From Longimicrobiales bacterium (GTDB lineage Bacteria; Gemmatimonadota; Gemmatimonadetes; Longimicrobiales; Gaopeijiaceae), in assembly GCA_965202985.1 (NCBI GenBank), contig CBDBCF010000001.1:2528001-2592000 (forward strand): DNA of 64,000 nt. The letters are read 5' to 3'. A program made the position numbers and the translations under genes. Numbering within the stretch: position 1 is the first letter of the stretch; every line of letters begins with the position of its first letter. The notes under the pieces are model-generated. The model was not told where the DNA came from and did not search any database. It saw nothing but the letters and a program-made list of their open reading frames with translations. Below are positions 27,535 through 44,329 of the stretch, in pieces.

Positions 27535-28131
27535 ATGAAGCCAAGAACCTCGGGTCGGCGGGTTCTGGACGGGAGTATCTTCGTGCTGATGCTCTTGGCG
27601 GCGGTTGCCGTTTGGAGGACCACGAGCGTGAACCGGGAGTATCAAGCAGCCCTCCAGTCCACCGGTCCTCTGGCGAACCGCACCCTTGTGAGGGACAGGT
27701 TGGTGGGCGTGCGCGTGTCGTTGCCGATGATTGAGCGGTCGGAAGATCTCGGTGCCGGGGCGGAGTTGGTGTGGGTCGTAGACTCGGACCGTTGCGACGG
27801 GTGCTTCGGCGACGGCGTGGGGGCGTGGAACGCGCTGGCGGCGGATTCGTCGTTGCGCCGTCATCTGTTGGTAGTCGGTGCGGGCGGCCTTCCCGGCGAG
27901 GTTCGTCGTGCGCTGCGTGGTACGACCGTCACGACGGTAACGCGGGAAGAGGTGGAAGCGGCCCTGGGACCGTTGCTCCCGACGACCAAGTTCCTGGTCG
28001 GGTCGGAGGGCACGGTGCTGCTGGCCGATTCGAGAACTGCAAACTCGGAGTGCGGCTGGAGCTTCGAGGCGCAGGTGGGCGTCCTGCGGGACGTTCTGCC
28101 GAGCGCGCTGATCCGCAACACTCAACCCTAA
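27535..28131 (+). CDS. Membrane-anchored thioredoxin-fold protein (CxxC, TlpA-like)
   Basis: N-terminal TM helix; LVWVVDSDR-CDGC; cis-Pro-like LPTTKFLVGSEGTV. Confidence 0.65.
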   Translation: MKPRTSGRRVLDGSIFVLMLLAAVAVWRTTSVNREYQAALQSTGPLANRTLVRDRLVGVRVSLPMIERSEDLGAGAELVWVVDSDRCDGCFGDGVGAWNALAADSSLRRHLLVVGAGGLPGEVRRALRGTTVTTVTREEVEAALGPLLPTTKFLVGSEGTVLLADSRTANSECGWSFEAQVGVLRDVLPSALIRNTQP

Positions 28132-28150
28132 GATCCCAAGGAGGATCGAC

Positions 28151-28393
28151 ATGGAGCTGGTAACGCAGGTTGGTCGCATCGTCGTCGCGGCGGTGCTGGT
28201 GTTCGTGCTGGGGTTCGCTTACGCGACCGTCAGCCCCGTCCCCACGTCGGCGTCTGGAGGATGCGACTCCGACTACTGCCACGACATGCCCGGGAGGGGG
28301 CCGAGCGACGAGTCGTGCGGGGGCAGCGTCTGCGACACTCGGGGGCAGATCTGTTGCTATCCGGAGATAGTAGTCTTCGTACCCCGGTCATAG
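28151..28393 (+). CDS. Small secreted six-cysteine peptide (peptide 1)
   Basis: AAGGAGG RBS; Sec signal peptide; mature C-x4-C-x12-C-x4-C-x6-CC. Confidence 0.8.
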   Translation: MELVTQVGRIVVAAVLVFVLGFAYATVSPVPTSASGGCDSDYCHDMPGRGPSDESCGGSVCDTRGQICCYPEIVVFVPRS

Positions 28394-28401
28394 TCCTAGT
28401 C

Positions 28402-29499
28402 GTGGATCGGCCGGGGACCAAGACCGGGCCGAGCACAATCCTGCTTTCCCTGGGGCTGGCCCTGCTTGCAGGCTGCGAGCCGGGCCAAGCCCCGGGGGAG
28501 GCGCCGGGCCGTAAGGTGCTTGCGGACGTGTTTGCCTTTGAGGGGATCGCGGAGCTTGACGAAGACCCGGCGGACTCGATCGCTCAGCCTGGTGCCTTCG
28601 TGGAGCGCCGACGAGGCGGCTTCGTCTTAGCCGACCGGTTGCTTCCGCGGATAAGGGCATATGGAGACGACGGCCGGTTGGAAGCGGCGTTCGGACGGTT
28701 CGGCGTTAGGGACCCTTGGAGCTTCGAACGGGTTGGGGGCGTGGCCGAGACGGCCGCAGGCGGCATCGTGGCCGTCGAGTACAGCAAGAAACGGCTGGTG
28801 TACCTGACGGATGCATTGGAAAGGGACACGGTTGTTTCGGTGTCCGGGCATCCTCGAAATGTTGTTGGTTTTGGGCCGGACTTGTTGTTGGAGATGCGGC
28901 ACGAGTGGCAAGCAATGCAGGACGAACAGCTGCCGTGGTTTCACCGAGTGACCGGGAACCAAGTGGCCTGGAGCCGGTATGGCTTTCCGTACATTCCATC
29001 CGAACGTCCGTACTGGGCCTCGCTCACGAGTTTCAAGGCGGCCGTTACCGGCGATTCGGTGTTCGCGGTCACCAGTTTGGGCTACCCGGCGGTTGTCTAC
29101 AACAGAAGGGGTGATTCGGTAGGCACAATCGGTATGCAGTCGTCCTCGTTTCGCCCGATCCCAGTGCTTGAATTCGGCGCATTGGTCGACCAGGGTCCGG
29201 GAGGAAGTCTCGCCGATTTCCTGGCTTCGTTCGACATGATTCACCGAATCGATGTGGTGGCGGAATCTTACTTGGTGGTGACGCTGGGCGTCTTGGACCC
29301 GAGCAGGCCCTTCCGTCGTTCAGGGTGGTTGCATACGTCTGTCGAGGTGTACGACAGACACACGGGGACCAAGCTGTACGAGGACGTGCCGTTGCCCGAC
29401 GGATCGGAGGTGCTGGGCGGCGGCCGATTCCTGTACCTGCTGACGAACAGAGAGGAGCCACCATGGAGAATCGCCAAGTTGCGGTTGCGCACGTCGTGA
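28402..29499 (+). CDS. 6-bladed beta-propeller lipoprotein (type A, copy 1)
   Basis: Lipobox LLAGC; NHL-like FVLAD..IRAYGDDGRLEAAFGRFG; GTG start inferred. Confidence 0.7.
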   Translation: MDRPGTKTGPSTILLSLGLALLAGCEPGQAPGEAPGRKVLADVFAFEGIAELDEDPADSIAQPGAFVERRRGGFVLADRLLPRIRAYGDDGRLEAAFGRFGVRDPWSFERVGGVAETAAGGIVAVEYSKKRLVYLTDALERDTVVSVSGHPRNVVGFGPDLLLEMRHEWQAMQDEQLPWFHRVTGNQVAWSRYGFPYIPSERPYWASLTSFKAAVTGDSVFAVTSLGYPAVVYNRRGDSVGTIGMQSSSFRPIPVLEFGALVDQGPGGSLADFLASFDMIHRIDVVAESYLVVTLGVLDPSRPFRRSGWLHTSVEVYDRHTGTKLYEDVPLPDGSEVLGGGRFLYLLTNREEPPWRIAKLRLRTS

Positions 29500-30686
29500 C
29501 CATCAAGACTCGGGTCGGTGCCGCTTGTCGGCGGGCGGCGAAGCGCTTGCGGTTGGCGGCTCCGCTGGTCGCCGTCCTCGTGGCGACATGCACGCAAGAC
29601 GTCGCGGAGCCCGACTCCGACTTCGTGTCCGTGGACGTTGCGGACGCCGAGGAGTGGATGCTCGACGGCAGCCCGCTTTTCGTGCTGGGCGACGACGAGA
29701 CCGATCCGCTGAGCAGCGTGCTCGGCGGACTGCTGATGGACTCGGGCCGAATCGTCGTGGCGGACCGAGGCAACTACCGAGTGCTGGTGATGGACGCCGA
29801 GGGCCAGACGGAGAGAGTCATCGGGGCGAAAGGCGAGGGTCCGCTGGAGTTCACGACGGTGACCAACATCGAGTCATGGGGCGGGGACACCGTGTTCGTC
29901 CACGATTCGCGAGCGAATCGGTACTCGGTATTTTCTGCCGCGACGGGCGAAGGCCGTAGCACCATGTTGCGAGGGACGGATGTGGTGCCAGGCACTGCCT
30001 TTCCTGCTGGTGACGGCGAGCTTTGGCTGACCGGTGGTTTGGGGATCGGGCCCGGAGAGCATGGCGCAGGTAGACGGCGGGTTCCGGTTGACCTCTTCCG
30101 TTACGTGGGCTCCGACAGCGTTGTCAGGGTGGCGACCCTGGCTGGGCCGGAGCTGTTCTTCGGGGCGGGCGGTGTCGGGTTCACGATTCCGCCGGTGCCC
30201 GTGGCGGCGGGAACCTCGCTGTCCCCCGGCGACGACAAGCTGTTTGTTTCGGATGGCGAGCGGCCTGTGATCACCGTCATGGACCGAAATGGCGCGACCG
30301 TGCGAGAGATCGAAGTGGCCGGAATGGACATTGAAGTGACGGACGACCTACGGGACATGATCACGGACTCGCTGTACGCGCTCGTGGCGAAAACCGAGGC
30401 GAGAATGCGAAGTCGGCTCGCGAAGACGCCGATTCCGGTGCAGCTCAGCGGATTTGCGTTGATCAAGTTGGCGGGAGACGGCACCTTGTGGATCGCTGGT
30501 CGCGGGGCGCCTGGGATTGAGACGCGGACATGGGTGAACATGACCATCAACGGGCGGTTGCTTCGCCGGTTCGATCTGCCGCGCTCGGTTGGCGTCCTGG
30601 ACGCCTCCGCCGATCGAGTCCTGTTGCGCACAACCGATGCCCTAGGCGTGGACAGGGTGGAGTTGCACGGCGTAGCGCGCCGCTGA
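29496..30686 (+). CDS. 6-bladed beta-propeller lipoprotein (type B, copy 1)
   Basis: Lipobox-like LVATC; IVVADRGNYRVLVMDAEG..IGAKGEGPLEF NHL-type motif. Confidence 0.75.
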   Translation: MTIKTRVGAACRRAAKRLRLAAPLVAVLVATCTQDVAEPDSDFVSVDVADAEEWMLDGSPLFVLGDDETDPLSSVLGGLLMDSGRIVVADRGNYRVLVMDAEGQTERVIGAKGEGPLEFTTVTNIESWGGDTVFVHDSRANRYSVFSAATGEGRSTMLRGTDVVPGTAFPAGDGELWLTGGLGIGPGEHGAGRRRVPVDLFRYVGSDSVVRVATLAGPELFFGAGGVGFTIPPVPVAAGTSLSPGDDKLFVSDGERPVITVMDRNGATVREIEVAGMDIEVTDDLRDMITDSLYALVAKTEARMRSRLAKTPIPVQLSGFALIKLAGDGTLWIAGRGAPGIETRTWVNMTINGRLLRRFDLPRSVGVLDASADRVLLRTTDALGVDRVELHGVARR

Positions 30687-30791
30687 CCGCTCGCCTCCTA
30701 GCGTTCTGGGCGAGCAGGGGTTACCGTCCGTGGAAGCATGGGATGGAACCGGGAGCGTCCACACTGGGAGTGCGGAGTGTCGGGGCCATGA

Positions 30792-31985
30792 ATGAATGAA
30801 ATGAAGCTCACAACCGCGGATCGGCGGGTTCTGCCGGGAGCCCTTCGTCATCGTCGTAGACGGGCCGTCATAATCGCCAGCTCGTTGATCGGCCCGGCGT
30901 CCAAGACCGGGCCAAACACGATCTTGCTTTCCCTGGGGCTGGCCCTGCTTGCAGGCTGCGAGCCGGGCCAAGCCCCAGGGAAAGTGCCAGCCAGTACGGG
31001 GCTCGCAGACGTATTCGCCTTTGAGGGGATCGTGGAGCTTGGCGAAGACCCGGCGGACTCGATCGCTCAGCCCGGTGCCTTCGTGGAGCGCCGACGAGGC
31101 GGCTTCGTCTTGGCCGACCGGCTACTTCCGCGGATAAGGACGTACAGCGAAGACGGCCGGTTGGAAGCGGCGTTCGGACGATTCGGCGTTAGGGATCCTT
31201 GGAGCTTTGAGCGTGTTGGGGGCTTGGCCGAGACGGCCTCGGGGGGCATCGTCGCCGTGGAGTACACCAAGCAAAGGCTGTTGTACCTAACGGATGCACT
31301 GGAGCGGGACGCGCTCATTCCAGTGTCCGGGTATCCTCGGGACGTTGTTGCTCTTGGTCCGGACTTGCTGCTGGAGATGCGAGTGGACGAGTGGGAAGTG
31401 GTGGAGGCCGACCGGCTGCCGTTCTTTCATAGAGTGATCGGCGATCAAGTGGCCTGGAGCCGGTACAGCTTCCCGTACATTCCATCCGAGCGTCCGTACT
31501 GGGGCTCGTTTGCGGCTTTCCTCGGTACCACGGCAGGCGACTCGGTGTTTGCGACCACTAGCCTGGGCTACCCCGTGGTCGTCTACAACGGAGCGGGCGA
31601 TTCGGTGGGCACGATCGGTGCGCCCTCGACTTCGTTTCGCCCGATTCCGGTGCTCGAACTGGGTGCGTTGGTCGACCAAGGGCCGGGAGGCGGTCTTGCC
31701 GACTTCCTAGCTTCGTTCGACATGATCCACGGGATCGACGTGGTGGCGGACTCTTACTTGGTGGTGACGCTCGGTATCTTGGACCCGACCAAGTCTTTTC
31801 CGCCCTTCAAGTGGCTGAACACGTCGGTCGACGTGTACGACAGACACACGGGGGCCAAGCTGTACGAGGACGTGCCGTTGCCCGAAGGATCGGAGGTGCT
31901 GGGCGGCGGCCGATTCCTGTACCTGCTGACGAACAGAGAGGAGCCACCATGGAGAATCGCCAACTTGCGGCTACGCACGTCGTGA
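30792..31985 (+). CDS. 6-bladed beta-propeller lipoprotein (type A, copy 2), N-terminus fused to a remnant of the thioredoxin gene start
   Basis: Paralog of 28402..29499 with LLAGC lipobox; MKLTTADRRVLPG resembles MKPRTSGRRVLDG; alternative start TTG 30885. Confidence 0.7.
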   Translation: MNEMKLTTADRRVLPGALRHRRRRAVIIASSLIGPASKTGPNTILLSLGLALLAGCEPGQAPGKVPASTGLADVFAFEGIVELGEDPADSIAQPGAFVERRRGGFVLADRLLPRIRTYSEDGRLEAAFGRFGVRDPWSFERVGGLAETASGGIVAVEYTKQRLLYLTDALERDALIPVSGYPRDVVALGPDLLLEMRVDEWEVVEADRLPFFHRVIGDQVAWSRYSFPYIPSERPYWGSFAAFLGTTAGDSVFATTSLGYPVVVYNGAGDSVGTIGAPSTSFRPIPVLELGALVDQGPGGGLADFLASFDMIHGIDVVADSYLVVTLGILDPTKSFPPFKWLNTSVDVYDRHTGAKLYEDVPLPEGSEVLGGGRFLYLLTNREEPPWRIANLRLRTS

Positions 31986-33172
31986 CCATCATGACTCGGA
32001 CAGGTGCCGCTTGCCGGCGAGCGGCGAAGCGCTCGTGGTTGGCGGCTCCGCTGGTCGCCGCCCTGGTGGCGACATGCACGCAAGACGTTGTGGGGCCCGA
32101 CTCGGGCTTCGTCTCCGTGGACGTTGCGGACGCCGAGGAGTGGACGCTCGAAGGCAGCCCGCTATTCGTGCTGGGCGACGACGAGGCCGACCCGCTGAGC
32201 GGCGTGGTCGGCGGACTGCTGATGGACTCGGAACGAATCGTCGTGGCGGACCGAGGCAACTACCGGGTACTGGTGGTGGACGCCAAGGGCCGGACGGAGA
32301 GAGTCGTCGGAGGGCAGGGCGAGGGTCCGCTGGAATTCACGACGATGACCATGTTCGCGCGGTGGCCCGGCGACTCGGTGTTCGTCTACGATTCCCGGGC
32401 GAACCGGTATACCGTGTTCTCCGCCGCGACGGGCGAGGGTCGCAACACCACATTGCGCGGAACGGAAGTGGTGCCGGGCAACGCCCTGCCTGCTGGCGAC
32501 GGCGAGCTGTGGCTGATCGGAGGTTTGCGGATCATACCCGGAGATTTTCGCCCAGGTCGACAGCGGGTTCCGATCGAACTCTTTCGCTACGTCGACTCCG
32601 ACAGCATCCCGAAGGTCGCGGAGCTGGCTGGGCCGGAGGTGGTCTTCGGATCGGGCAGTGTCGGGTTCACGATGCCGCCGGTGCCCGTAGCGGCGGGAAC
32701 CTCGCTGTCCGCCAGCGACGACAGGCTGTTCGTCTCGGACGGCGAGCGTCCGGTGGTTACCGTCCTGGATCGGACAGGCGCGACCGTGGGAGAGATCGAA
32801 GTAGCCGGTTTGGATGTCGAAGTGACGGACGACCTGCGGGAGATGATCACGGACTCGCTGTACGCGAACGTCGCGCAAAACGAGGCGAGAATGCGGAGCC
32901 GCCTCGAGAAGGCGCCGATTCCGGCGCAGCTCGACGGATTCGGCTTGATCCGCTTGGCCGGAGACGGCACCCTGTGGGTCGCCGGCCGCGGTGCGTCCGG
33001 GCTGGAGAGGCGGACATGGGTGAACATAGCCCTCGACGGGCGGCGGCTCCGCCGGTTCGATCTGCCGCGCTCGGTCAGCGTTCTGGATGCTTCCGCCGAC
33101 CGACTCCTACTGCGCAGAACCGACGCCGTGGGCGTGGAACGGGTCGAACTGCACGCGATCTCGCGCCGCTGA
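31982..33172 (+). CDS. 6-bladed beta-propeller lipoprotein (type B, copy 2)
   Basis: Paralog of 29496..30686; GGQGEGPLEF. Confidence 0.75.
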   Translation: MTIMTRTGAACRRAAKRSWLAAPLVAALVATCTQDVVGPDSGFVSVDVADAEEWTLEGSPLFVLGDDEADPLSGVVGGLLMDSERIVVADRGNYRVLVVDAKGRTERVVGGQGEGPLEFTTMTMFARWPGDSVFVYDSRANRYTVFSAATGEGRNTTLRGTEVVPGNALPAGDGELWLIGGLRIIPGDFRPGRQRVPIELFRYVDSDSIPKVAELAGPEVVFGSGSVGFTMPPVPVAAGTSLSASDDRLFVSDGERPVVTVLDRTGATVGEIEVAGLDVEVTDDLREMITDSLYANVAQNEARMRSRLEKAPIPAQLDGFGLIRLAGDGTLWVAGRGASGLERRTWVNIALDGRRLRRFDLPRSVSVLDASADRLLLRRTDAVGVERVELHAISRR

Positions 33173-33197
33173 CCGCTTGCCGATAGTCGATCTCCCC

Positions 33198-34244
33198 ATG
33201 ACACCTTCGCCCACGCTCCCATCCGCCCTGCTGGCAGCGGCAATCGCCCTGTCTTGGTGGGCACCCCCCGCGTCCAGTCAGGAAGTCCAGCGGATCCAGC
33301 GCGCCGAAGGAGCGGACACTTGGTCGCTGCGACTCGAAGAAGTCCTCGCGGTCGGGTCGATGGAGGAGGGCGACGCGTTGTTCGGCCGCATCATGGACGT
33401 CGCCTGGGACGGCCGAGACCGGATTCTTGTCGCGGACGACTTGGGGCCGCACGTCAAGGTGTTCGAGTCGGACGGAACGTACGTCCGCACGATCGGGCGC
33501 GAAGGAGACGGCCCAGGGGAGTTTTCCTTGCCGTGGCAGATGGCCGTGGACGCGAGCGACTCGCTTTACGTGTGGGACGCCGCGCAGTCGCGCATCTCGG
33601 TCTTCTCGCCCGATCACGACTTCATCCGGAGCATTTTGGTCTCGCCGGCGTGGGTCGTCACCTCCATGGAGGTTCCGGCGCCCGATCGGATCGTCGTGGC
33701 CGCGTTCGCTCCCGGCGAGACGCTGCCCGTCAAGGTCCTGGACAAGGAAGGGGCCGTCCTACGCCAAGCGGGCAGAGCCATCGAACCGGCCGACTTGGCG
33801 GGACACGCCGGAAGCCTGCTCGGCGGGTCGCTGGCGCGAGTCGAAGGCGGCTACGCGTACACGAACAAGAGTCCGTGGGCCGTCACTTGGTTCGACCGCG
33901 ATCTGCGGATTGTGCGCACCTGCGTCGGCCCTTCGGAGTGGACGACCCCCCCGGGCGACGCGGTTCAGCGGACCGATCGAGGCGTGGGGCTCGCATGGAA
34001 CAGGTACGTCCACTCCGCGTCCATCGTGGGACTGCCGGGGGGCGTGGTGCTCAATACGATACTGGACCCGGCGGCCGACGTTCGCGTCCTGCACCTGGTG
34101 ACGCCGGATTGCGTGATCAAGTCGGAGATCAGGCTGGAACTTCCGGTCACGCCGACCCTGGCCAAGGGTGATCTGGTTGCGGCCGTGCGCAGCCTGGACT
34201 ACCACGAGGTGGTTCTGTACCGCGCCGCCACGGCCAGCCGCTAG
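33198..34244 (+). CDS. Secreted 6-bladed beta-propeller (NHL repeat) protein (type C)
   Basis: Signal peptide; VKVFESDGTYVRTIGREGDGPGEFSLP..LYVWD..RISVFSPD. Confidence 0.8.
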   Translation: MTPSPTLPSALLAAAIALSWWAPPASSQEVQRIQRAEGADTWSLRLEEVLAVGSMEEGDALFGRIMDVAWDGRDRILVADDLGPHVKVFESDGTYVRTIGREGDGPGEFSLPWQMAVDASDSLYVWDAAQSRISVFSPDHDFIRSILVSPAWVVTSMEVPAPDRIVVAAFAPGETLPVKVLDKEGAVLRQAGRAIEPADLAGHAGSLLGGSLARVEGGYAYTNKSPWAVTWFDRDLRIVRTCVGPSEWTTPPGDAVQRTDRGVGLAWNRYVHSASIVGLPGGVVLNTILDPAADVRVLHLVTPDCVIKSEIRLELPVTPTLAKGDLVAAVRSLDYHEVVLYRAATASR

Positions 34245-34292
34245 GCCGACCTCCGCCGGCGACCCCCGTCGCGCGCCCCCGCAGGGCGGACA

Positions 34293-34322
34293 TTGACGGA
34301 CGCCCCCTCGCGGTGCGATACT
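34293..34322 (+). promoter_or_regulatory. sigma70 promoter of the infC operon
   Basis: TTGACG, 18-bp spacer, TG-C-GATACT extended -10. Confidence 0.6.
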
Positions 34323-34382
34323 CCTTGACTGTACTTCTTCACCTTCCCCCCAACAGCGGCAGCCGCCGCGACACATCCCCGC

Positions 34383-34521
34383 AAGCAGAGGGCTGACCAC
34401 CTCTCACCCTGGTCGCCGAGCCGGCCGCCGGGTTCCGTTCAGCAGGTCCGGCGCCGGACAGCAGGCGCGCCGGGTCCGGTGGTCGCGAAGCCCGGCTTTC
34501 CCGTCCGGGCTTTCTTGCTTT
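34383..34521 (+). ncRNA. Putative L20-leader-like structured 5' UTR of infC-rpmI-rplT
   Basis: AAGCAGAGG..CCTCTCACC hairpin like the Firmicutes L20 leader 5' motif; loop GACCACC complementary to GGTGGTC (34478-34484); ends in a terminator-like hairpin. Confidence 0.5.
34488..34521 (+). terminator. Intrinsic terminator/attenuator upstream of infC
   Basis: AAGCCCGG-CTTTCCCGT-CCGGGCTT followed by TCTTGCTTT. Confidence 0.6.
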
Positions 34522-34570
34522 GCGGAGCGTTCGCGCCGGCGCACCCCAGCCGTGCAAGGAGAGAGCCAAG

Positions 34571-35089
34571 ATCGCAGAAAAACGTGTCCGGGTGAACGAA
34601 CAGATCAGGATCAGCCCCATCCGCCTCATCGCCGAGGGGGGCGGCCAGATCGGCATCGTCTCCCTGGACGACGCTCGTTCGCGGGCCTCGGAGCTGGGGC
34701 TGGACCTGGTCGAGGTCGCCCCCGATTCCCGGCCCCCCGTGGTCCGCATGATGGACTACGGCAAGTTCAAGTACAAGGCGGCTCGGGCCGCCCGGGAGGC
34801 GCGAAAGAAGCAGCACACGGTCCAGATCAAGGAGGTCAAGTTCCGGCCCGGAATCGAGGACCACGACTACGAGTTCAAGCTTCGCCACGCCCGCCGCTTC
34901 CTGGAAGAGGGGAACAAGGTCAAGCTCACGATGATGTTCCGCGGCCGGCAGGTCACGCACCCCGAACTGGGGCGGGAGGTCCTCCTGCGCGTGACCGGCG
35001 ACCTGAGCGACCACGCCAAGGTGGAGCAGTACCCCAACTTCGAGGGACGCCAGATGTCCATGATCCTGACGCCCATCAAGACCCAGTGA
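34571..35089 (+). CDS. infC: Translation initiation factor IF-3, predicted non-canonical ATC start
   Basis: [31 protein letters not shown] 9 nt before an in-frame ATC. Confidence 0.95.
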
Positions 35090-35111
35090 CCGCAACGCCA
35101 AGGAGGAACCG

Positions 35112-35309: not shown

Positions 35310-35344
35310 ACTTCCCCCTGGAACGCTAGGAAGGAGATGAGTTC

Positions 35345-36772: not shown

Positions 36773-36812
36773 GGCGGCGCGCGACAGGCGCCGGTTGCGC
36801 AGGGGCCGTCCC

Positions 36813-39293
36813 GTGAAGGTCTCCTGGCGCTGGTTGCAGGAGGTGGCGCCCGGGCTCGCCCCGACTCCGGAAGCGGCGGCGGAGCGGTTGGCGCTGCGCG
36901 GGGCGCCGGTCGAATCGCTGGACGACTTGGCGCAGGGCCTCGGGGACGTGGTGGTGGGGCGCGTTCTGGAGGTAGGGCCCCATCCCGACGCCGACCGCCT
37001 GTCGTTGTGCACGGTGGCCGGGCCGGCGGGCGAAGTCCCCGTGGTGTGCGGCGCGCCCGACGTGCGGGCCGGGGCGTGCTATCCCTTCGCGCCGGTGGGG
37101 GCCGTGCTGCCGGGCGGCTTCAAGATCGGGCGGCGCAAGATACGCGGCCGCACCAGCGCAGGGATGCTGTGCTCGGAGCGAGAGCTGGGCCTGGGTCCCG
37201 ACCACGAGGGGATCATGCTGCTGGAGGGGGACCACGAGCCGGGTGCGCCGTTCGCCGCCGCCGTGGGGCTGGACGACGCGCGCCTGGACGTGGAGGTCAC
37301 GCCCAACCGGGGCGACCTGCTGTGCCATGTGGGCGTTGCTCGGGAGCTGCATCCGAAGGGGTGCGCCGGGATCGTGCTGCCCTCGTTTCCGGGCCGGTCG
37401 GCGGGTGAGACCGCGTCGCAGGTGGCGGGAACGCCGTTCGCGCGGGGCGGGGCCGAGATCGCATCCGAGGCGGTCCGCGTCCGCATCGAAGAGCCCGAGT
37501 TGTGCTCGCGCTACTTGGCGGCGGCGATCCGGGGTGTCGTCGTGGGGCCGTCGCCTCCGTGGCTGGCGAACCGCCTCCGGGCGGCGGGCGCGCGTCCCGT
37601 CAACAACGTCGTGGACGCCACGAACTACGTCATGCTCGAGCTGGGACAGCCGCTGCACGCTTTCGACTTGGCCAAGCTGGCCGACGCGACCGTTGTGGTC
37701 GGTAGCGCCCGCCCCGGCGAGACGCTGGTGACGCTGGACGGCGAGCGCCGGCCGCTCGCGCCGGAGATGCTGACGATCCGAGACGCCGAGCAGCCCGTGG
37801 CCGTGGCGGGCGTCATGGGCGGCGCCAACTCGGAGGTGTCCGCCGACACGACCGACGTGTTGCTGGAGTGCGCGCTCTTCGAACCGCGACAGGTGCGGGC
37901 CGCGCGCCGGGCCTTGGGGATGTCCACCGAAGCTAGCTACCGCTTCGAGCGCGGCGTGGACCCCGAGACGATGGAGACGGCGGTGCTGCGGGCGGCGTCG
38001 CTGGTGCTGGCGGTGGCGGGAGGCGCCGTGGACGGCCCGGTGGTCGATGCGTGTCCGGCGCCGTGGACGCCCCCCGTCGTGACCGTGCGGCCTTCGCGGG
38101 TGGCGCGCGTGCTGGGCGTGTCGTTCTCGCCGGACGAGATCGCGGGGCTGCTGGAGCCGCTGGGGTATGCGGCGGCGGACCAGGACTGGACGGCAGGGGA
38201 GCCCGCGACGGCGGTCGAAGGCGCGGAGGCTGCGCTGGCGTTTCGCGTTCCCGGCCATCGCAGCTGCGACACGCTGCGGGAAGTGGACCTGATCGAGGAG
38301 GTGGCTCGCGTCCACGGCTACGACGCCTTCCCCGACGCGCTGGGATCCTATCGCCCCGGCTCGGTGCCCGACCACCCCTTGTTCCGCCTGGAGGACGACC
38401 TGCGGGCCGACCTGACGGCGGCCGGAATCAGCGAAGCCCAGACGCCGGCCCTGGGACCCGAGAGCGACGGCGACGTGCCCGTGCTGAACCCCGTCTCCGC
38501 GCAGGAAGGTTGGCTCCGGCGGGACCGCCTGTCCGGCCTGCTGCCCCATGTCGAGCGCAACATGTCCAGGGGCGTGGGCGACGTGCGGCTCTTCGAGTTC
38601 GGAACCGCGTTCGCGCCGGCGCCCGAGTCCGCGCCGCCGGTGGAGACTCCCCGCGTGGCCGTCGTGCTCACTGGACTTCGGGCGCCGACTCACTGGTCCG
38701 GGGCCGGCGAGACCTTCGACGTCTTCGACGCGGCGTGGGTCCTCGAGCGCATCGTCGCGCGGGCGCACCCCGGTGCTCGCGTGACGCCGGCCGACGCCGG
38801 AGACGATGCGGAGGCGGACCATCCCCACTTCGCGCCGGGCCGCTGGCATCGGGTGACCGACGACGAAGGCCGGGTCGTTGGCGCCGGCGGGGAAGTGCGC
38901 CGCGAGAGGTTGGACCTGCCGCCGTGGGCGGGCGTGGTCGTCGGCGCGGAAGTGGTCCTGCCCGAACTGCCCGATCCTCCCAGTCCGGCGGCGGCGGTGG
39001 AGCTGCCCGACCAGCCTTCCTCCAGCCGCGACGTGGCCATGCTGTTGCCGCAGGGTGTAGCGGCGGGCAAGGTGCTGGATGCCTTCCGGGCGGGCGGCGT
39101 CGCGGTCCTGGAAGACGTGGCGATCTTTGATCTGTACGAGGGGGCGGGCCTGCCCTCCGGGGCGCGTTCGGTCGGGTTCCGCTTGCGCTTTCGGGCTCGG
39201 GACCGAACCCTGACGGAGGCGGAAGTGGAACGTTCGTTCGGGCGATTGCTTCGCAAGGTGAAGGAGAAGACCGGTGTCGAACCGAGGGGCTGA
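36813..39293 (+). CDS. pheT: Phenylalanine--tRNA ligase beta subunit
   Basis: HPDADRL, VTPNRGD, NNVVDATNYVMLELGQPLHAFD and RFERGVD; GTG 36813 inferred. Confidence 0.97.
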   Translation: MKVSWRWLQEVAPGLAPTPEAAAERLALRGAPVESLDDLAQGLGDVVVGRVLEVGPHPDADRLSLCTVAGPAGEVPVVCGAPDVRAGACYPFAPVGAVLPGGFKIGRRKIRGRTSAGMLCSERELGLGPDHEGIMLLEGDHEPGAPFAAAVGLDDARLDVEVTPNRGDLLCHVGVARELHPKGCAGIVLPSFPGRSAGETASQVAGTPFARGGAEIASEAVRVRIEEPELCSRYLAAAIRGVVVGPSPPWLANRLRAAGARPVNNVVDATNYVMLELGQPLHAFDLAKLADATVVVGSARPGETLVTLDGERRPLAPEMLTIRDAEQPVAVAGVMGGANSEVSADTTDVLLECALFEPRQVRAARRALGMSTEASYRFERGVDPETMETAVLRAASLVLAVAGGAVDGPVVDACPAPWTPPVVTVRPSRVARVLGVSFSPDEIAGLLEPLGYAAADQDWTAGEPATAVEGAEAALAFRVPGHRSCDTLREVDLIEEVARVHGYDAFPDALGSYRPGSVPDHPLFRLEDDLRADLTAAGISEAQTPALGPESDGDVPVLNPVSAQEGWLRRDRLSGLLPHVERNMSRGVGDVRLFEFGTAFAPAPESAPPVETPRVAVVLTGLRAPTHWSGAGETFDVFDAAWVLERIVARAHPGARVTPADAGDDAEADHPHFAPGRWHRVTDDEGRVVGAGGEVRRERLDLPPWAGVVVGAEVVLPELPDPPSPAAAVELPDQPSSSRDVAMLLPQGVAAGKVLDAFRAGGVAVLEDVAIFDLYEGAGLPSGARSVGFRLRFRARDRTLTEAEVERSFGRLLRKVKEKTGVEPRG

Positions 39294-39588
39294 CGACCCG
39301 GCCCCCGCCAGCGGGCCGGAGATGGAGACGCTGGAGGCGGCCGTGGACCGGGCTGTCGCCGAGCTGCGGACCGCGCGCAAGCGGGCCAGCGAGGCGGAGG
39401 AACGCGCCGACCGCGGCGACGAGCTGCTCCGCGAGTTCGTGGACGGCAAGCAGGACCCGGCCGCGCTGTCGCGGAAGGTGGCCGAGCTTGAAGCCGAGAA
39501 CGAGGCGTTGCGGTCCCGCATCCGTCAGGGGCGGCAAGGGGTCGACCAGATTCTGGCGCGCATCCGCTTCTTGGAGGACCGACGATGA
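39274..39588 (+). CDS. Coiled-coil protein (ZapB-like)
   Basis: Short coiled coil between pheT and zapA, a conserved position. Confidence 0.55.
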   Translation: MSNRGADDPAPASGPEMETLEAAVDRAVAELRTARKRASEAEERADRGDELLREFVDGKQDPAALSRKVAELEAENEALRSRIRQGRQGVDQILARIRFLEDRR

Positions 39589-40172
39589 CCGCTTCGGACG
39601 GCGACGCCCGCAATACCGTGCGCGTGACGATCGCCGGCGAGGACTACACGATCCGTACCGAAGCCGACGAGGACTACACGCGGCGATGCGCAACCCTGGT
39701 CGATCAGCGGATGAAGGCGATCGCCGGCGAAGGCACCGCCGGGGCCGCCCAGACGCGGGCCGCGATCATGGCCGCCCTGTCTATCGCCGACGACCTGTTC
39801 CAGCAAAAGGCCCGCACTCGCCAGCGGGCGCAGGAGCTGGCCAAGCGCGTGGAGGAGGCGTTGCAAGAGGACGGTGCGACGGGAGGCTCGGGGGGAGCGA
39901 ACGACTCGAAGGGAGGCCTGGGAGCGAAGGGCGACGCGACGGGAGCTCCGAGCGTGCGGGGCGACTCGCCAGGAGCCCACGGCGCAAGGGACGACATGGC
40001 GACTGCCCCGTCGGCCGCCGAGTCGAACGACTTTGTCGCAGGCGACCTTTCCCCGTCGAACGCCGCCGAGTCCGGCTTTGCCGCAGGCGACTTTGTCCCC
40101 GCGGACGCTGCCGAGTCGGACGACTTCGCCCAAAGCGACTTCGTCCCGCCGGACGCCCCGCCCGAGGACTGA
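39585..40172 (+). CDS. zapA: Cell division protein ZapA with an ~100-aa low-complexity C-terminal extension
   Basis: VRVTIAGEDYTI..VDQRM..AAIMAALSIADDLF. Confidence 0.85.
   Translation: MTASDGDARNTVRVTIAGEDYTIRTEADEDYTRRCATLVDQRMKAIAGEGTAGAAQTRAAIMAALSIADDLFQQKARTRQRAQELAKRVEEALQEDGATGGSGGANDSKGGLGAKGDATGAPSVRGDSPGAHGARDDMATAPSAAESNDFVAGDLSPSNAAESGFAAGDFVPADAAESDDFAQSDFVPPDAPPED
39876..40160 (+). repeat. Degenerate tandem repeats in the zapA extension (~27-bp x4, then ~45-48-bp x3)
   Basis: GCGAC..GGAG units, then GCCGAGTC..GACTT..GCGACTT units encoding AAES-x-F-x-GDF. Confidence 0.55.
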
Positions 40173-40181
40173 CTCCCCACC

Positions 40182-41450
40182 ATGCCGCCCGCCAAGGACG
40201 CATCCCGCTTCAGTCGCCGTCGCTGGCTAGCATCGGCCTCCGGAGCGACGGCTGCCGCCTGGGCCATGACCCGCGCCGACGCCTTCGCCGCGGCCCCGTT
40301 CCGGCAGCAGCCCTTGTCCCCCGACCCGACCAAGGTCCCCGGGCGCTTCGTCTCCGAGGTGGGCCGTCGGGCGCCGGGCGAACAGCCGCGTCGCCTGATC
40401 CGCGCCCAGGCGCTGTCGAGCTCGTCGCGGACGCCCCTTCACGAGTTGCAGGGCACGATCACTCCCGCGGACCTGCACTTCGAGCGCCATCACGCCGGGG
40501 TCCCCGAGATCGCGTCCCAGGACCACGAACTGCTCGTCCACGGGATGGTCGAGCGTCCAATGGTCTTTCGCATGGCGGACCTGAAGCGGTACCCGCAGGC
40601 GTCGCGCATCTGCTTCGTCGAGTGCTCGGGCAACGGCGGCGGAGCCTACAGCCGCGACCGGATGCCCACCGAGATCACCGCCCAGCAGCTGGACGGGCTG
40701 ATCAGCACCAGCGAGTGGACCGGCGTCATGCTCTCCACGATCCTTCGCGAGGTGGGCGTTCGTCCGGGCGCGAGCTGGCTCTTGGCCGAGGGCGGAGACG
40801 CCGCCGTGATGGGCCGCAGCGTCCCGCTGGAGAAGGCGAACGACGACGCAATGCTCGCCTACGGCCAGAACGGCGAGGCGATCCGCCCCGAGCAGGGCTA
40901 CCCCGTGCGGCTCCTGCTGCCCGGCTGGGAGGGCAACGCCCAGGTGAAGTGGCTGCGGCGCATCGAGGTCACCGACCGCCCGACGATGACCCGCGACGAG
41001 ACCTCGCGCTACACCGACCCCCTGAAGGACGGGACCGCCCGCCAGTTCAGCTTCGTGATGGACGCCAAGTCGGTGATCACCTTCCCGTCGTACCCCTACG
41101 TCCTGCCGGAGCGGGGCTGGTGGGAGCTCTCGGGACTGGCCTGGACCGGACGGGGCCGCGTGACACGGGTCGACGTGAGCACCGACGGCGGGCGTTCCTG
41201 GACTCCCGCGCAGATGCAGGGGCCGGTGCTGCCCAAGTCCACCGTCCGCTTCCGCCACCTCTGGCGCTGGGACGGCCGCGAGACCGTGATCATGAGCCGC
41301 GCCACCGACGAGACCGGCTACGTGCAGCCCACCGTCCAGCAGCTCTGGCAGGCCCGGGGCGAAGGAACCACGTACCACCACAACCACCAGCGCGCCTGGA
41401 AGATCGCCGCCGACGGAGCCGTCACCTTCGGCCTGGGGGAGTTGGTGTGA
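40182..41450 (+). CDS. soxC: Sulfite dehydrogenase molybdopterin subunit (SoxC/SorA family), Tat-exported
   Basis: SRRRWL Tat motif; GTITPADLHFERHH, ECSGN and EQGYPVRL..PGWEGN..VKWL. Confidence 0.9.
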   Translation: MPPAKDASRFSRRRWLASASGATAAAWAMTRADAFAAAPFRQQPLSPDPTKVPGRFVSEVGRRAPGEQPRRLIRAQALSSSSRTPLHELQGTITPADLHFERHHAGVPEIASQDHELLVHGMVERPMVFRMADLKRYPQASRICFVECSGNGGGAYSRDRMPTEITAQQLDGLISTSEWTGVMLSTILREVGVRPGASWLLAEGGDAAVMGRSVPLEKANDDAMLAYGQNGEAIRPEQGYPVRLLLPGWEGNAQVKWLRRIEVTDRPTMTRDETSRYTDPLKDGTARQFSFVMDAKSVITFPSYPYVLPERGWWELSGLAWTGRGRVTRVDVSTDGGRSWTPAQMQGPVLPKSTVRFRHLWRWDGRETVIMSRATDETGYVQPTVQQLWQARGEGTTYHHNHQRAWKIAADGAVTFGLGELV

Positions 41451-41539
41451 GGGGCGGCGCGCCGTCGCGCCGGCGGAGCCTGTCGCCCTGTTCCCGCCCT
41501 GTCGCCGCGGCCGCTTCCGAAAGCGCTCGAACGGCCTCC

Positions 41540-42154
41540 ATGCGAGCGGCGCTTGCACTGGCGGCAATGGTCGTCCTTGGTGGATGCGGCAGCCCGCCCG
41601 ACGAAATCCCCGGCAACCCGTCCGTTTCGCCCGTTCTGTCCAGCGTCCCCGTTGCGCCCCCGAGCCTCCCCGATCACGCACCCGACCGGTTCGGCTTCGG
41701 TTCGGCCGCCTCCGAAGCGCGCGTCGCCCTCTGGGACATTGACGTGAAGCCCGACGGCGAGGGGTTGCCGCCCGGAAGCGGCTCGGTGGAGGAAGGCCGC
41801 CGCCTCTACGAGGTCCAGTGCATGGCGTGCCACGGCCCGACCGGAACCGAGGGTCCCAACGAGCGGCTCGTGCCAGACGGTGATTGGGAGCAGTGGCCGC
41901 AAGGGCGCACGGTCGGCGGCTACTGGCCCTACGCCACGACACTGTTCGACTACGTGCGCCGGGCCATGCCCCAAGCGACTCCGGGCTCCCTGTCGGACGA
42001 CCAGGTCTACGCCGTCTCCGCCTACGTCCTCCATCTGAACGGCCTGCTGCCCGCCGACGCCGCGCTGGACTCGGCTTCCCTGGCGGCAGTGGAGATGCCC
42101 GCCCGCAACCGCTTCGTCCCCGACGACCGGCAAGGCGGCCCGGAGGTGCGGTGA
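41540..42154 (+). CDS. Monoheme cytochrome c lipoprotein (SoxD-like)
   Basis: VLGGC lipobox; WDIDVKPDGEGLPPGSGSV..CMACHG..YWPYATTLFDYVRRAMP..MPARNRF. Confidence 0.85.
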   Translation: MRAALALAAMVVLGGCGSPPDEIPGNPSVSPVLSSVPVAPPSLPDHAPDRFGFGSAASEARVALWDIDVKPDGEGLPPGSGSVEEGRRLYEVQCMACHGPTGTEGPNERLVPDGDWEQWPQGRTVGGYWPYATTLFDYVRRAMPQATPGSLSDDQVYAVSAYVLHLNGLLPADAALDSASLAAVEMPARNRFVPDDRQGGPEVR

Positions 42155-42190
42155 CAGGCGAAGCCCACGCTTGAAGATGACTTCCAGAGT

Positions 42191-42207
42191 TTGGCACGTA
42201 AATTGCT
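42191..42207 (+). promoter_or_regulatory. sigma54 (-24/-12) promoter of peptide locus 2
   Basis: TTGGCACGTAAATTGCT with exact GG-N10-GC spacing, ~60 nt upstream of the peptide ATG. Confidence 0.8.
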
Positions 42208-42220
42208 GTGTACTGGCGCG

Positions 42221-42239
42221 TCGCGACACGGTGTCGCGA
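42221..42239. repeat. Perfect palindrome TCGCGACAC-G-GTGTCGCGA in the peptide 2 leader
   Basis: 9-bp inverted repeat just downstream of the predicted +1. Confidence 0.6.
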
Positions 42240-42267
42240 AAAACACGTCCCAGCAAGGGAGGCAAAG

Positions 42268-42519
42268 ATGGAGAAGCACCGGCAGATGAGGCTGTTCGCC
42301 ATGATCGCGTCGTTCCTGGCGCTTCTGGCGGCAGGTGCCTGGGTCCAACACCTGGGCGCGGAAGACGACGGAGGCTGCGACCACGGGGAGTGCGAGCACA
42401 GCCACCGTCGCTTCTGGTTCGACAGCCACAAGTGCGTTCCGAACGAGAACGACGTGGCCTGTGGGACCGACCAGTCGGAGCAGCACGGCTGCGAAACGAC
42501 CAGCTGCGGCGCTGCCTAG
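42268..42519 (+). CDS. Small secreted six-cysteine, His-rich peptide (peptide 2)
   Basis: AAGGGAGG RBS; Sec signal peptide; mature C-x4-C-x13-C-x8-C-x9-C-x4-C. Confidence 0.8.
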   Translation: MEKHRQMRLFAMIASFLALLAAGAWVQHLGAEDDGGCDHGECEHSHRRFWFDSHKCVPNENDVACGTDQSEQHGCETTSCGAA

Positions 42520-42521
42520 CT

Positions 42522-43700
42522 GTGGAACAACGGTCGAAGACGAGAAGCCGCCTCGGTGGGCTCATCGTGACGGCGGGCTTGGCCCTGGCGTGCGGCCAAG
42601 AAGGACTGCGCGAAGGCGAGGTCCTTCATCCCACGGCCCAGAACGCTTTGCCGGACGACGCAGCGGTGATCACCAGCGATACGCTTCCCGCGGGACTCTC
42701 CCCGACGGCGCTGGCGGCATGGCGGGAGACGCGAAACGCCCTTCTCGGGTCTGTCACGCAACTCCAACTCGGGGCGGACGATTCGTCAGGCCCTGATGCC
42801 TTTGGTCGAGTTTGGGACGCGGCCGTGGCGGGTCCCTCCGGGCGGCTGTTCGTGCTCGACGAAATCGACCAGGAGATCCGCGTCTTCGATCGCGATGGAC
42901 GCTTCGTAGGCCGTACAGGCGGAATCGGAGACGGACCGACCGAATTCCGATACGCCAACGGAATCGAGATGCTTGGCGACGGGCGACTGGTTGTGTCCTC
43001 CCGGGGTTCCGTTCAGCTGAAGGTGCTGGCGGAATCAGGGTCCGGCTGGGAGCTGGACGCGACGATTCAGCTCCCGGCCGGTCCCGACGATCTTTGTTCC
43101 ACTCCCGACGGGCGGGTCTTCCTTTCCGGCTACAAGCGCGAAGGCAATACTCTGGTGCACGAGGTTGCCGTGACGGAGGGCTCGTCAACCCAAGACTTCG
43201 GGGAAGGCTACCTTGCCGACCACTGGCTGGTCGAACACCAGCTGGCGCCGGGAAGGCTCGCATGCACGGAAGAACAGGGTCCGGTGATGTTCGCTCACGA
43301 GTTGCTCCCGTGGGTGCGCGCGTTCGATCGGGATACCGGTCGTCTGCTGTGGACCGCCGAAATCGAGGACTTTCTGTTGCCGATGGTCGTGTCGAGAGTT
43401 CGGTCCGACGGACGCCACGCAGTGCGACGCGGCCGAACAGAGGTCGAAGACATAGTGGCAGCCCTGCACGCAGTGTCGTCCAACCATCTGCTGTTGCAGG
43501 TCTCGCGATTCCGTGCTAGCGGAAGACAGGTGAGCGTGCGCAGCTACCTTCTTGACGCCGCGACCGGGCTTGGGGCGAGCCTCGGGGACGATGCACTGCC
43601 TCCCGTCGTGTCTACCTTTCCCGGTGGTTATGTCGCCGTCTTCGAGGATCCCTACCCTCGCCTCGAAACGAGGGTCTTCGGCGACGGTGGAGGTCTGTGA
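42522..43700 (+). CDS. 6-bladed beta-propeller lipoprotein
   Basis: LALAC lipobox; LFVLDEIDQEIRVFDRDGRFVGRTGGIGDGPTEF. Confidence 0.8.
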   Translation: MEQRSKTRSRLGGLIVTAGLALACGQEGLREGEVLHPTAQNALPDDAAVITSDTLPAGLSPTALAAWRETRNALLGSVTQLQLGADDSSGPDAFGRVWDAAVAGPSGRLFVLDEIDQEIRVFDRDGRFVGRTGGIGDGPTEFRYANGIEMLGDGRLVVSSRGSVQLKVLAESGSGWELDATIQLPAGPDDLCSTPDGRVFLSGYKREGNTLVHEVAVTEGSSTQDFGEGYLADHWLVEHQLAPGRLACTEEQGPVMFAHELLPWVRAFDRDTGRLLWTAEIEDFLLPMVVSRVRSDGRHAVRRGRTEVEDIVAALHAVSSNHLLLQVSRFRASGRQVSVRSYLLDAATGLGASLGDDALPPVVSTFPGGYVAVFEDPYPRLETRVFGDGGGL

Positions 43701-44329
43701 CGGTGTTGCGCGGGAATCGAAGGCAGTGGGGTTGGATTGCGATTTTCGCGTGCATGGGAGCTCCGGTCGGATATGGACTAGCGTGGGCAGGACTGATTCC
43801 AGACGTGCGCGTCGACTGGCCCGTCGGCCTGCGCGGGAGGGAGTCGTACACGCCCTCCGGCACCCTGTCTTCTGGCACGGAGGTTGTCCTGGTCTACGTC
43901 GGGTCCTCAACCTGCGCCTGGTCGAACGTGCCGAGATTGCCCAAGTTGGTCGAAGAGCTCAAGCTCACGCTTCAGGCGAGGGCGAAGTCCGAAGGCAAGA
44001 CCTTCTTCACGGTTGGCGTTGCCCGCGATCTCGAATCGGACCGAGGCCTTCGTCACCTGGAGGACTTCGGGACGTTCGACGAAGTGATGTCGGGCGGCAG
44101 TTGGATCAATACTGGTATTCTCAAGTACATCTTTGACGACCTGCCGGGTCCCGCGGCTACCCCGCAACTGGTCCTCTTGGAGCGCTTGGTCGAGGTCCGC
44201 GAGGGGAACTATTCCATCGCGGACGAACGAATTCTGGCCCGGGCTGTCGGACTTGAGGAAATCGACGAATGGGGCGCCTCGTGGGCGAGAAGCGGCACCG
44301 CGCCCGACCGCGGGACACGAGGTCGGTAG
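43697..44329 (+). CDS. Membrane-anchored thioredoxin-fold protein (CxxS)
   Basis: N-terminal TM; VVLVYVGSST-CAWS; ATPQLVLL cis-Pro-like motif. Confidence 0.6.
   Translation: MTVLRGNRRQWGWIAIFACMGAPVGYGLAWAGLIPDVRVDWPVGLRGRESYTPSGTLSSGTEVVLVYVGSSTCAWSNVPRLPKLVEELKLTLQARAKSEGKTFFTVGVARDLESDRGLRHLEDFGTFDEVMSGGSWINTGILKYIFDDLPGPAATPQLVLLERLVEVREGNYSIADERILARAVGLEEIDEWGASWARSGTAPDRGTRGR

Follow-up and report, generated by a model that had tools for sequence, protein, structure and literature searches.

The 64,000-nt window analysed here (positions 2,528,001 to 2,592,000 of contig CBDBCF010000001.1, Longimicrobiales assembly GCA_965202985.1) carries two loci in which a small exported peptide with six cysteines is encoded together with a membrane-anchored thioredoxin-fold protein and beta-propeller proteins. 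The same gene trio recurs in the host genome, which comprises 3.86 Mb on two contigs (C1, C2) with a G+C content of 68-69%, and in its relatives. We tentatively read it as a module for the folding and capture of a fast-evolving mini-protein.

Gene content of the two loci

All ten genes were recovered on the plus strand at the positions given in a preliminary description of this DNA. Locus 1 (27535-34244) starts with trx1 (27535..28131), which encodes a protein of 198 aa with an N-terminal transmembrane (TM) anchor, a TlpA/ResA-like thioredoxin fold and the motif CDGC. It is followed by pep1 (28151..28393) for an 80-aa precursor with a Sec-type signal and six Cys, and by five propeller genes. 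Prop1 (propA type, 28402..29499, GTG start) is an NHL-type propeller lipoprotein with the lipobox LLAGC, and prop2 (propB type, about 29463..30686) is a DUF5128 propeller whose signal ends in VATC. Their respective paralogues are prop3 (about 30885..31985, with an uncertain start at ATG 30792 or TTG 30885; 79% amino acid identity to prop1) and prop4 (about 31949..33172, Pfam DUF5128; 77% identity to prop2). The last gene, prop5 (about 33198..34244), encodes a DUF5128 propeller with a plain Sec-type signal and no lipobox. Locus 2 (42268-44329) consists of pep2 (42268..42519) for an 83-aa precursor with the Shine-Dalgarno (SD) sequence AAGGGAGG, a Sec-type signal and six Cys, prop6 (42522..43700, GTG start) for a DUF5128 propeller lipoprotein with the lipobox LALAC, and trx2 (43697..44329) for a protein of 210 aa with a TM anchor, a tryparedoxin/TlpA-like thioredoxin fold and the motif CAWS. 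The supposition that both loci share the same three gene types holds for the presence of a peptide, a thioredoxin fold and a propeller, but trx1 and trx2 belong to unrelated families, their homology being rejected by hhalign (probability 1-4%).

The intergenic distances of 19 nt (trx1-pep1), 8 nt (pep1-prop1) and 2 nt (pep2-prop6) and the 4-nt overlap of prop6 and trx2 fit co-expression. All three product types are predicted to be exported to the periplasmic face, as judged from the TM helix, the lipobox and the AxA-type cleavage site. Pfam and NCBIfam searches revealed no tailoring enzyme or transporter in either locus, and thioredoxin-fold proteins were the only enzyme families found. The inspection was extended to the flanks for tailoring enzymes and bears out the proposed absence of a known enzyme for the tailoring of ribosomally synthesised and post-translationally modified peptides. 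PADLOC defence models gave no match for eight proteins, and NCBIfam only far sub-threshold matches to ScyF-type NHL proteins.

Both peptides conform to their earlier characterisation as precursors of about 80 aa with a strong SD and six Cys. In both, the N-terminus is hydrophobic with an AxA-like site, and the mature part measures about 45 residues and includes the six Cys; neither peptide has a Pfam match. The SD of pep1 (AAGGAGG) is located 6 nt 5' of the ATG, and its product comprises a signal with the cleavage site between AYA and TV, the pro-region TVSPVPTSASG, an acidic mature part with the framework C-x4-C-x12-C-x4-C-x6-CC and the tail EIVVFV. The corresponding type 1 family, with 27 clusters among 5.8 billion proteins, has the framework C-x4..8-C ... 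C-x4-C-x5..7-CC and five invariant Cys columns in the family alignment. Pep2 has an acidic, His-rich mature part with the framework C-x4-C-x13-C-x8-C-x9-C-x4-C, and in its type 2 family (C-x4-C ... C ... C ... C-x4-C) six Cys columns and no other residue are invariant. The common C-x4-C-x12/13-C start of the mature peptides that had been pointed out is present in both sequences. It may reflect distant kinship, because the two family profiles align with a probability of 92% (E 5.7e-7), a score that the signal peptide and the Cys composition may inflate. The mature peptides are acidic in all 18 members of type 1 (mean net charge -6.2) and in 13 of the 19 members of type 2.

The thioredoxin fold ascribed to both Trx proteins is backed by AlphaFold models and their Foldseek and VIA matches and not by a curated sequence family: neither protein has a Pfam or NCBIfam family at E<=0.1 or a match among PDB sequences, profile search included. 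As modelled, both adopt this fold and match TlpA/ResA/tryparedoxin-like oxidoreductases. In the trx1 model (AF2, pLDDT 78) a long helix at the N-terminus precedes the Trx domain, which matches ResA/CcmG/DsbE in Foldseek (E 2e-5) and reaches a VIA Z of 12.0 (root mean square deviation (rmsd) 2.5, 123 aligned), with ResA, CcmG, DsbE and SdbA among the structural matches. Of its 44 homologues none has a Pfam domain. In the trx1 family C90 and C173 are invariant and C87 is near-invariant, CDGC directly follows the strand 76-83, and the third invariant Cys sits in ECGWSFEAQ. The trx2 model (AF2, pLDDT 90) has TlpA-like matches in Foldseek (E 1.8e-4) and a VIA Z of 10.2 to tryparedoxins (rmsd 3.3, 129 aligned). 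C73 and P156 are invariant in its family (34 sequences) and the cis-Pro loop TPQ is conserved, and the active site retains the first Cys throughout, the second position being mostly Ser (CxxS, monothiol) and Cys (CxxC) in a few members. Relatives of trx2 form 1998 representative clusters when E<=0.001 is required and 940 when E<=1e-30 is required. The best-scoring one (P0077, 342 aa) is matched in two stretches, so the trx2 domain may be duplicated in tandem.

Four of the propellers match Pfam DUF5128 (PF17170) above the cut-off, namely prop2 (E 3.5e-6), prop4 (1.2e-6), prop5 (3.2e-13) and prop6 (2.1e-6), and the matches span only positions 40-130, approximately, of the 321 in the model, i.e. 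one or two blades. Prop1 and prop3, which carry a lipobox like prop6, have no Pfam match. The profile of the prop1 family (16 sequences) matches NHL propellers of the PDB in four stretches with E down to 1.5e-21, namely Thin, TRIM71, TRIM2/3 and Brat; the NHL domains of TRIM71, Brat and Thin bind macromolecules. The nearest ESM Atlas clusters of prop1 are DUF5128 (score 0.95), and the propeller hidden Markov model (HMM) of the host genome recognises prop1 (E 9e-50), prop2 (6e-106) and prop5 (5e-59). In the propA alignment (16 sequences) no His or Asp is invariant, and the lipid-anchor Cys is the only invariant Cys. Many propeller lipoproteins of type 1 loci carry a Glu or Asp within a few residues after this Cys (CE.., CAE.., CD..). 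Acidic residues near the lipid anchor serve as a sorting signal in other bacteria, and they might do so here.

Recurrence, divergence and gene loss

A recurrence of the triad in other genomes had been set as a test in the preliminary description, and it was found for both types of locus. All 22 trx1 loci contain a six-Cys peptide open reading frame (ORF) of the C-C-C-C-CC type and a propeller, with the peptide ORF broken in one of them (L013) and two pairs of near-duplicates (L001/L004, L015/L016) in the set. The gene order is trx-pep-prop in 20 and pep-prop-trx in two of these loci; the prop1-type propeller comes after the peptide gene there too. Of the trx2 loci, 40 were fetched; a propeller is adjacent in 37 and, in 33 of these, ends at the trx2 start. 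A six-Cys ORF was detected in 22 of the 40 by a uniform scan and in four more (L052, L054, L055, L081) by looser scans, i.e. in 26. Trx1 is present in 19 and trx2 in 53 of the 201 sampled genomes of the order; in a phylum sample of 301 genomes trx2 occurs in 51, all of one class.

The trio is also repeated within the host genome. A strict scan for small ORFs with SD, a hydrophobic N-terminus and at least four Cys retrieved ten distinct ORFs, nine of which have a propeller ORF no more than 600 nt away, against 5.6% of the genome at that distance (binomial p 5e-11); a looser scan found 14 peptides adjoining 15 of 84 propellers. The propellers themselves were counted with an iterated HMM, which retrieved 95 ORFs, 84 of them at E<=1e-20; with an estimated total of roughly 3,000 genes they probably make up about 3% of these. 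A single clade of peptide-associated propellers was rejected, as they are scattered among distant paralogues. A third trx1-pep-propA unit is located on contig 2 (895.2-897.2 kb). Its trx1 (L083, C2:895239-895790) is broken, with only the C-terminal 72 residues in frame (68% identical) and an internal stop; the peptide and propeller genes of the unit are undamaged, and this trx1 protein is found in full length elsewhere (P0009).

Other peptide-propeller units have different thioredoxin partners. The third gene of the unit at C1:1887515 encodes a Thioredoxin_2-like protein of 170 aa (Pfam E 9e-5, just under the cut-off), and that at C1:161773-162400 a TM-anchored DsbA with CPFC, which stands in a row with an eight-Cys peptide (CC..CC..C..C..C..C) and a propeller lipoprotein (C1:161500-165000, minus strand). 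The host genome also encodes general DsbA, VKOR and CcdA proteins. With trx1 and trx2, four kinds of thioredoxin-superfamily genes are thus paired with peptide-propeller units, a distribution indicative of convergent, independent recruitment. Both the view that each module has its own thiol-disulfide oxidoreductase-like protein and the view that the module is polymorphic, with different Trx partners, are substantiated by these units and by the relatives. In a further arrangement (C1:575690-578272) an extracytoplasmic function (ECF) sigma factor, a four-Cys peptide ending in CCEIIPPA, a propeller and a 178-aa lipoprotein without Pfam match are encoded in the same direction.

Fusions of the thioredoxin and propeller genes were also looked for. 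Ten long propeller-bearing open frames of the host genome contain no Trx domain. At one locus (L064:1801-4014) a propeller and trx2 share a 737-codon frame with no stop between them, and the TM segment of trx2 is retained, which would give a true fusion an odd topology. Two further apparent propeller-Trx fusions (L067, L073) were rejected as out-of-frame artefacts of high G+C.

The peptides have diverged in a characteristic fashion. Averaged over 11 close relatives of pep1, the identity is 94% in residues 1-37 (signal and TVSPxPTSASG) and 55% in the mature part (47% excluding the Cys columns); trx1 of comparably close relatives is 82-95% identical. The postulated polymorphism of the peptide family is supported, with hypervariable mature parts on a fixed Cys scaffold. 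The same gradient is visible on the DNA level in the comparison of locus 1 with the closest genome locus (L013), where the nucleotide identity amounts to 94% for the aligned parts of trx1, 91% for the peptide signal, 75% for the mature peptide and 84% for the propellers. Positive selection on the mature peptide was considered, and its dN/dS (ratio of nonsynonymous to synonymous substitutions) of 0.49, from only 44 codons against the broken L013 copy, is not decisive.

Locus 1 represents two diverged four-gene units (trx1-pep-propA-propB) in tandem. The second one is the counterpart of the L013 unit, since prop3 and prop4 are 90% and 82% identical to the L013 propellers. Between prop2 and prop3 we located the scar of a second trx1-pep unit (30695..30880, plus strand, about 190 nt), in which the 5' region of trx1 with its first codons continues into the final codons of a peptide gene (…FVIVVDGPS*). 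It was recognised by collinear blastn matches to 27438-27570, a weak match to the head of L013 and three-frame translation. This junction of a trx1 start and a peptide end indicates that locus 1 once contained two complete four-gene units, the second of which lost trx1 and pep. In L013 itself (6900-7700) the deletions in trx1 total 133 nt and the peptide gene has a 47-nt deletion inside the signal peptide, and the propellers are intact; these deletions could represent gene decay or a long-read assembly error. Two differing trx1-pep deletions with intact propellers argue that trx1 goes with the peptide and that the propellers are kept without either. After both deletions the propellers are under purifying selection (dN/dS 0.2-0.5).

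The genomic setting of the two loci differs from that of their relatives. Locus 1 is flanked by thrS and a DUF4143 ATPase gene on one side and infC-rpmI-rplT-pheST on the other, and locus 2 has a molybdopterin oxidoreductase with its cytochrome c on one side and RNase Y on the other; none of thrS, infC, the Mo-oxidoreductase or RNase Y was found beside related modules, except one ThrS fragment (L002). Both loci have a G+C content of 0.64-0.65 compared with about 0.70 in the surroundings. The AAA_14/DUF4143 ATPase gene beside thrS (26382-27421, minus strand) is spanned by two overlapping frames, and its 3' end looks truncated or frameshifted. Relatives of the window genes are present in metagenome-assembled genomes labelled Gemmatimonadota, Longimicrobiales and Candidatus Palauibacter. 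Of the sequence words sampled from 27400-30700, at least 80% are present in four sponge metagenome runs, all from one study, and in two runs of a coded organism; no RNA run was listed for this region, and contigs of four DNA runs cover it in fragments and with strains mixed.

A sigma-54-type promoter match (TGGCACGTAAATTGCT, 42192..42207, plus strand) is located 76 nt 5' of the pep2 ATG and represents one of 16 strict sites of this type in 3.86 Mb; rpoN is present at C2:443416-443889. Sigma-54 control as a family feature was rejected, as the site is absent from all 40 trx2-type and all 22 trx1-type loci elsewhere. Three of the 16 sites precede propeller loci, namely those at pep2, C1:1214583 (plus strand) and C2:828761 (minus strand). 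The second one precedes the propeller at C1:1214281-1215831, and four tandem propeller paralogues follow behind the third at C2:823442-828532 (minus strand), with no Cys-rich peptide seen beside them.

Comparison with known systems

The closest precedents for the pairing of thioredoxin and propeller are NHLRC2 of animals and some bacteria and SOQ1 of the plant thylakoid lumen. According to the accessible text of the respective studies (PMC6107167; bioRxiv 10.1101/2021.03.16.435614), a Trx-like domain is fused to a six-bladed NHL propeller, the two parts associate stably and the redox motif lies in the cleft that separates them, and SOQ1 is tethered by a TM helix with the propeller proposed as a substrate platform. 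The Trx domain of NHLRC2 has been assigned to the Thioredoxin_8 class (PMC6107167, accessible text). The two loci likewise encode a Trx fold of the TlpA/tryparedoxin class beside an NHL propeller in what would be an oxidising compartment. Tryparedoxins, the best structural matches of trx2, presumably belong to the same Thioredoxin_8 class. Unlike in SOQ1 and NHLRC2, thioredoxin and propeller are separate genes in both loci, a beta-stranded domain at the C-terminus is missing and a hypervariable six-Cys mini-protein is co-encoded. The redox motifs also differ, with CDGC in trx1, CAWS in trx2 and CxxS in the trx2 family in place of the CC(I/V)NC given for NHLRC2/SOQ1 in the accessible text of PMC6107167. 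No sequence homology to NHLRC2 or SOQ1 was found, the PDB matches of the propA profile being other NHL proteins only, and SOQ1 (7djk) is not among the 50 VIA matches listed for trx1.

A comparable gene logic is known from the mau cluster, where MauD and MauE are required for the methylamine dehydrogenase (MADH) small subunit with its six disulfides to mature (bioRxiv 10.64898/2026.03.05.709764, accessible text). In both systems a small Cys-rich polypeptide that is exported is encoded with a beta-propeller and with its own membrane-associated, Trx-like maturation factor. MauA is conserved and has 12 Cys and a Trp-derived cofactor, in contrast to the six-Cys peptides described here, and MauG and MauE are absent from the loci. 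MauB is a seven-bladed soluble subunit.

The gene clusters of small exported peptides in other bacteria offer further parallels. The sublancin cluster carries its own thiol oxidoreductases bdbA/bdbB. In the bacteroidetocin operon, deletion of the thiol oxidoreductase lowers bacteroidetocin activity (PMC6671954, accessible text). Like these clusters, the two loci encode an exported Cys-containing peptide and a dedicated disulfide enzyme in the same operon, but instead of double-glycine leaders and an ABC transporter/peptidase without a propeller they have Sec-type signals, no transporter and propeller lipoproteins. In Bacteroidales, which belong like the host to the FCB (Fibrobacteres-Chlorobi-Bacteroidetes) group, NVEALA small exported proteins are encoded directly beside DUF5128/TolB-like six-bladed propeller lipoproteins. 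PF14055 (NVEALA) has no match in the host genome, a result that says little, since it also has none in all 14 control genomes. In conotoxin precursors the signal and pro-region are near-invariant and the mature part is hypervariable around a fixed Cys framework, with dedicated protein disulfide isomerases as catalysts; the likeness to these animal venom genes is an analogy of evolutionary pattern only. The two loci resemble NHLRC2/SOQ1, the mau cluster and the double-glycine bacteriocin clusters only in their logic, and the defining features of these systems fail.

We found no description of the trio in the literature on Gemmatimonadota, Palauibacter (including PMC10469786), NVEALA, DUF5128 and propeller or disulfide-peptide clusters, and the accessible text of a review on sponge peptides (PMC12426817) mentions no Gemmatimonad, thioredoxin or propeller. 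Read as a thioredoxin-NHL unit that is split into separate genes and encoded with a fast-evolving, cysteine-rich partner, the trio has no earlier description that we could find.

Interpretation and rival explanations

We consider it possible, if somewhat short of probable, that the loci encode a module dedicated to the disulfide folding and the capture of a fast-evolving six-Cys mini-protein, with the thioredoxin and the propeller as a split SOQ1/NHLRC2. The mini-protein would emerge through Sec at the membrane and meet the TM-anchored thioredoxin and the lipid-anchored NHL propeller at its periplasmic face. The propeller may bind the unfolded or the folded mini-protein, and the thioredoxin of the module may form or shuffle its three disulfides, with trx1 as a putative CxxC oxidase/isomerase and trx2 as a putative monothiol isomerase or a holder via a mixed disulfide. 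The folded mini-protein would then be displayed or released. This proposal is based on the co-occurrence of the trio, on the four kinds of recruited thioredoxins despite the presence of DsbA, VKOR and CcdA, and on the precedent of the SOQ1/NHLRC2 pairing. It is consistent with the match of both Trx models to periplasmic TlpA/ResA/CcmG/SdbA-type oxidoreductases and with that of the propA profile to macromolecule-binding NHL domains, without any invariant His/Asp or non-anchor Cys. It is also in accordance with the joint loss of trx1 and peptide in two differing deletions that left propA and propB intact.

Several observations weigh against this proposal. The thioredoxin families lack the CC(I/V)NC motif of NHLRC2/SOQ1, SOQ1 (7djk) ranks only 41st for trx2 (VIA Z 7.6), and no fused propeller-trx2 form is found among the best 150 of the 1998 trx2 relatives, which at 141-342 aa are too short to include a propeller. 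The uniform scan detected no peptide in the stretch fetched for 18 of the 40 trx2 loci (14 with the looser scans), hence trx2 is not obligatorily accompanied by the peptide. Most of these peptide-less loci retain the propeller beside trx2, which suggests that the thioredoxin may serve the propeller as much as the peptide. About 84 propeller paralogues compare with about 14 peptides and few Trx genes, so that most propellers must work without either, and a folding helper for one peptide alone leaves the extra propeller arrays (prop2-prop5) unexplained. Finally, the cleavage of the signal is assumed, and the near-invariant hydrophobic N-terminus of the peptide could be a permanent membrane anchor.

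The hypervariability of the mini-protein and the survival of the propellers after peptide loss point to recognition or antagonism. In the main rival, which we regard as rather unlikely, the mini-protein would be a bacteriocin-like, secreted six-Cys toxin with the thioredoxin as its foldase, and the propeller lipoproteins would confer immunity, as cognate or orphan proteins, by capturing the peptide in the envelope. With the propellers in this role, it best explains the hypervariability (94% identity of the signal vs 55% of the mature part), the orphan propeller arrays and the propeller retention. Several findings fit it: the mature peptide is the most diverged DNA of the locus in the comparison with L013 (75% vs 84-94%), the propellers remained under purifying selection after two separate trx-pep deletions, they outnumber the peptides and form tandem arrays, trx1 and trx2 are patchily distributed in the order (19/201 and 53/201 genomes), the flanks are not conserved, and the G+C content (0.64) is below that of the neighbours (about 0.70). 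Bacteroidetocin, moreover, needs dedicated thiol oxidoreductases for its full toxin activity (PMC6671954, accessible text). Yet neither locus contains an exporter, a peptidase or a lysis gene, and a Sec-exported peptide ends up in the periplasm of the producer itself. Most membrane-active bacteriocins are cationic, whereas the mature peptides are acidic in the large part of both families reported above. A pure foldase role does not explain the trx2-propeller pairs without a peptide in part of the loci, and we know of no propeller that serves as immunity protein for a peptide toxin.

The mini-protein might also be a redox partner of the Trx-propeller enzyme and not its product, thus forming an envelope thiol relay or sensor that senses or repairs oxidative damage. 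SOQ1 offers a precedent, as its nDsbD-like C-terminal domain has been proposed to act in disulfide exchange with its Trx-like domain (bioRxiv 10.1101/2021.03.16.435614, accessible text), and the monothiol CxxS site of trx2, the ECF sigma factor gene immediately upstream of one unit of peptide and propeller (C1:575690) and the sigma-54 promoter match 5' of pep2 would suit such a role. We nevertheless deem it improbable: a housekeeping redox partner should be conserved, but the mature peptide is 55% identical where trx1 is 82-95% identical, neither window locus contains a regulator, and the sigma-54 site is not conserved. The three-part gene logic shared with methylamine dehydrogenase (MauA, MauB, MauD) raises the idea of a small disulfide-rich subunit of a propeller enzyme. 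This is very hard to reconcile with a hypervariable peptide, the lack of Trp for a quinone cofactor in mature pep1, the absence of MauG- or MauE-like genes from the loci, and NHL-type propeller lipoproteins without invariant catalytic-looking residues. The explanation that requires no common function at all, i.e. that Cys-rich ORFs and Trx genes lie near propellers by chance, derives some plausibility from the 84-95 propeller ORFs in the genome. It is refuted for practical purposes by the nine of ten strict Cys-rich ORFs beside propellers (p 5e-11), by the conserved neighbourhoods of 22/22 and 37/40 loci in other genomes, and by Cys columns that stay invariant while the remainder varies.

Beyond the folding and capture of a single mini-protein, a bolder version with more doubtful prospects would be a conotoxin-like arsenal in Gemmatimonadota of sponge metagenomes, composed of hypervariable acidic three-disulfide mini-proteins, their own thioredoxins and cognate NHL-propeller receptors or immunity proteins. 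If this is true, the FCB group would possess a polymorphic system of peptide recognition that is new, and sponge-type knottins might have a bacterial source. The disulfide peptides of sponges that have been traced so far are of sponge origin (PMC12426817, accessible text), and in the literature searched we found no description of bacterially encoded mini-proteins that have three disulfides and combine a conserved signal with a mature part that is hypervariable.

Under the favoured reading, i.e. disulfide folding and capture by a split thioredoxin-NHL unit, the loci would bear on proteins of general importance. NHLRC2 is essential in mammals and mutated in FINCA disease, and SOQ1 regulates photoprotection in plants; a binding cleft and a possible disulfide exchange have been proposed for them, and the accessible text of both studies does not name the Trx-NHL substrate (PMC6107167; bioRxiv 10.1101/2021.03.16.435614). 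A bacterial split Trx-NHL pair with a co-encoded cysteine-rich candidate substrate would provide a tractable model that is expressible in Escherichia coli. For the Gemmatimonadota, the expansion of the propellers and the trx2 family, with its 1998 representative clusters and no Pfam model, represent a large unannotated envelope biology.

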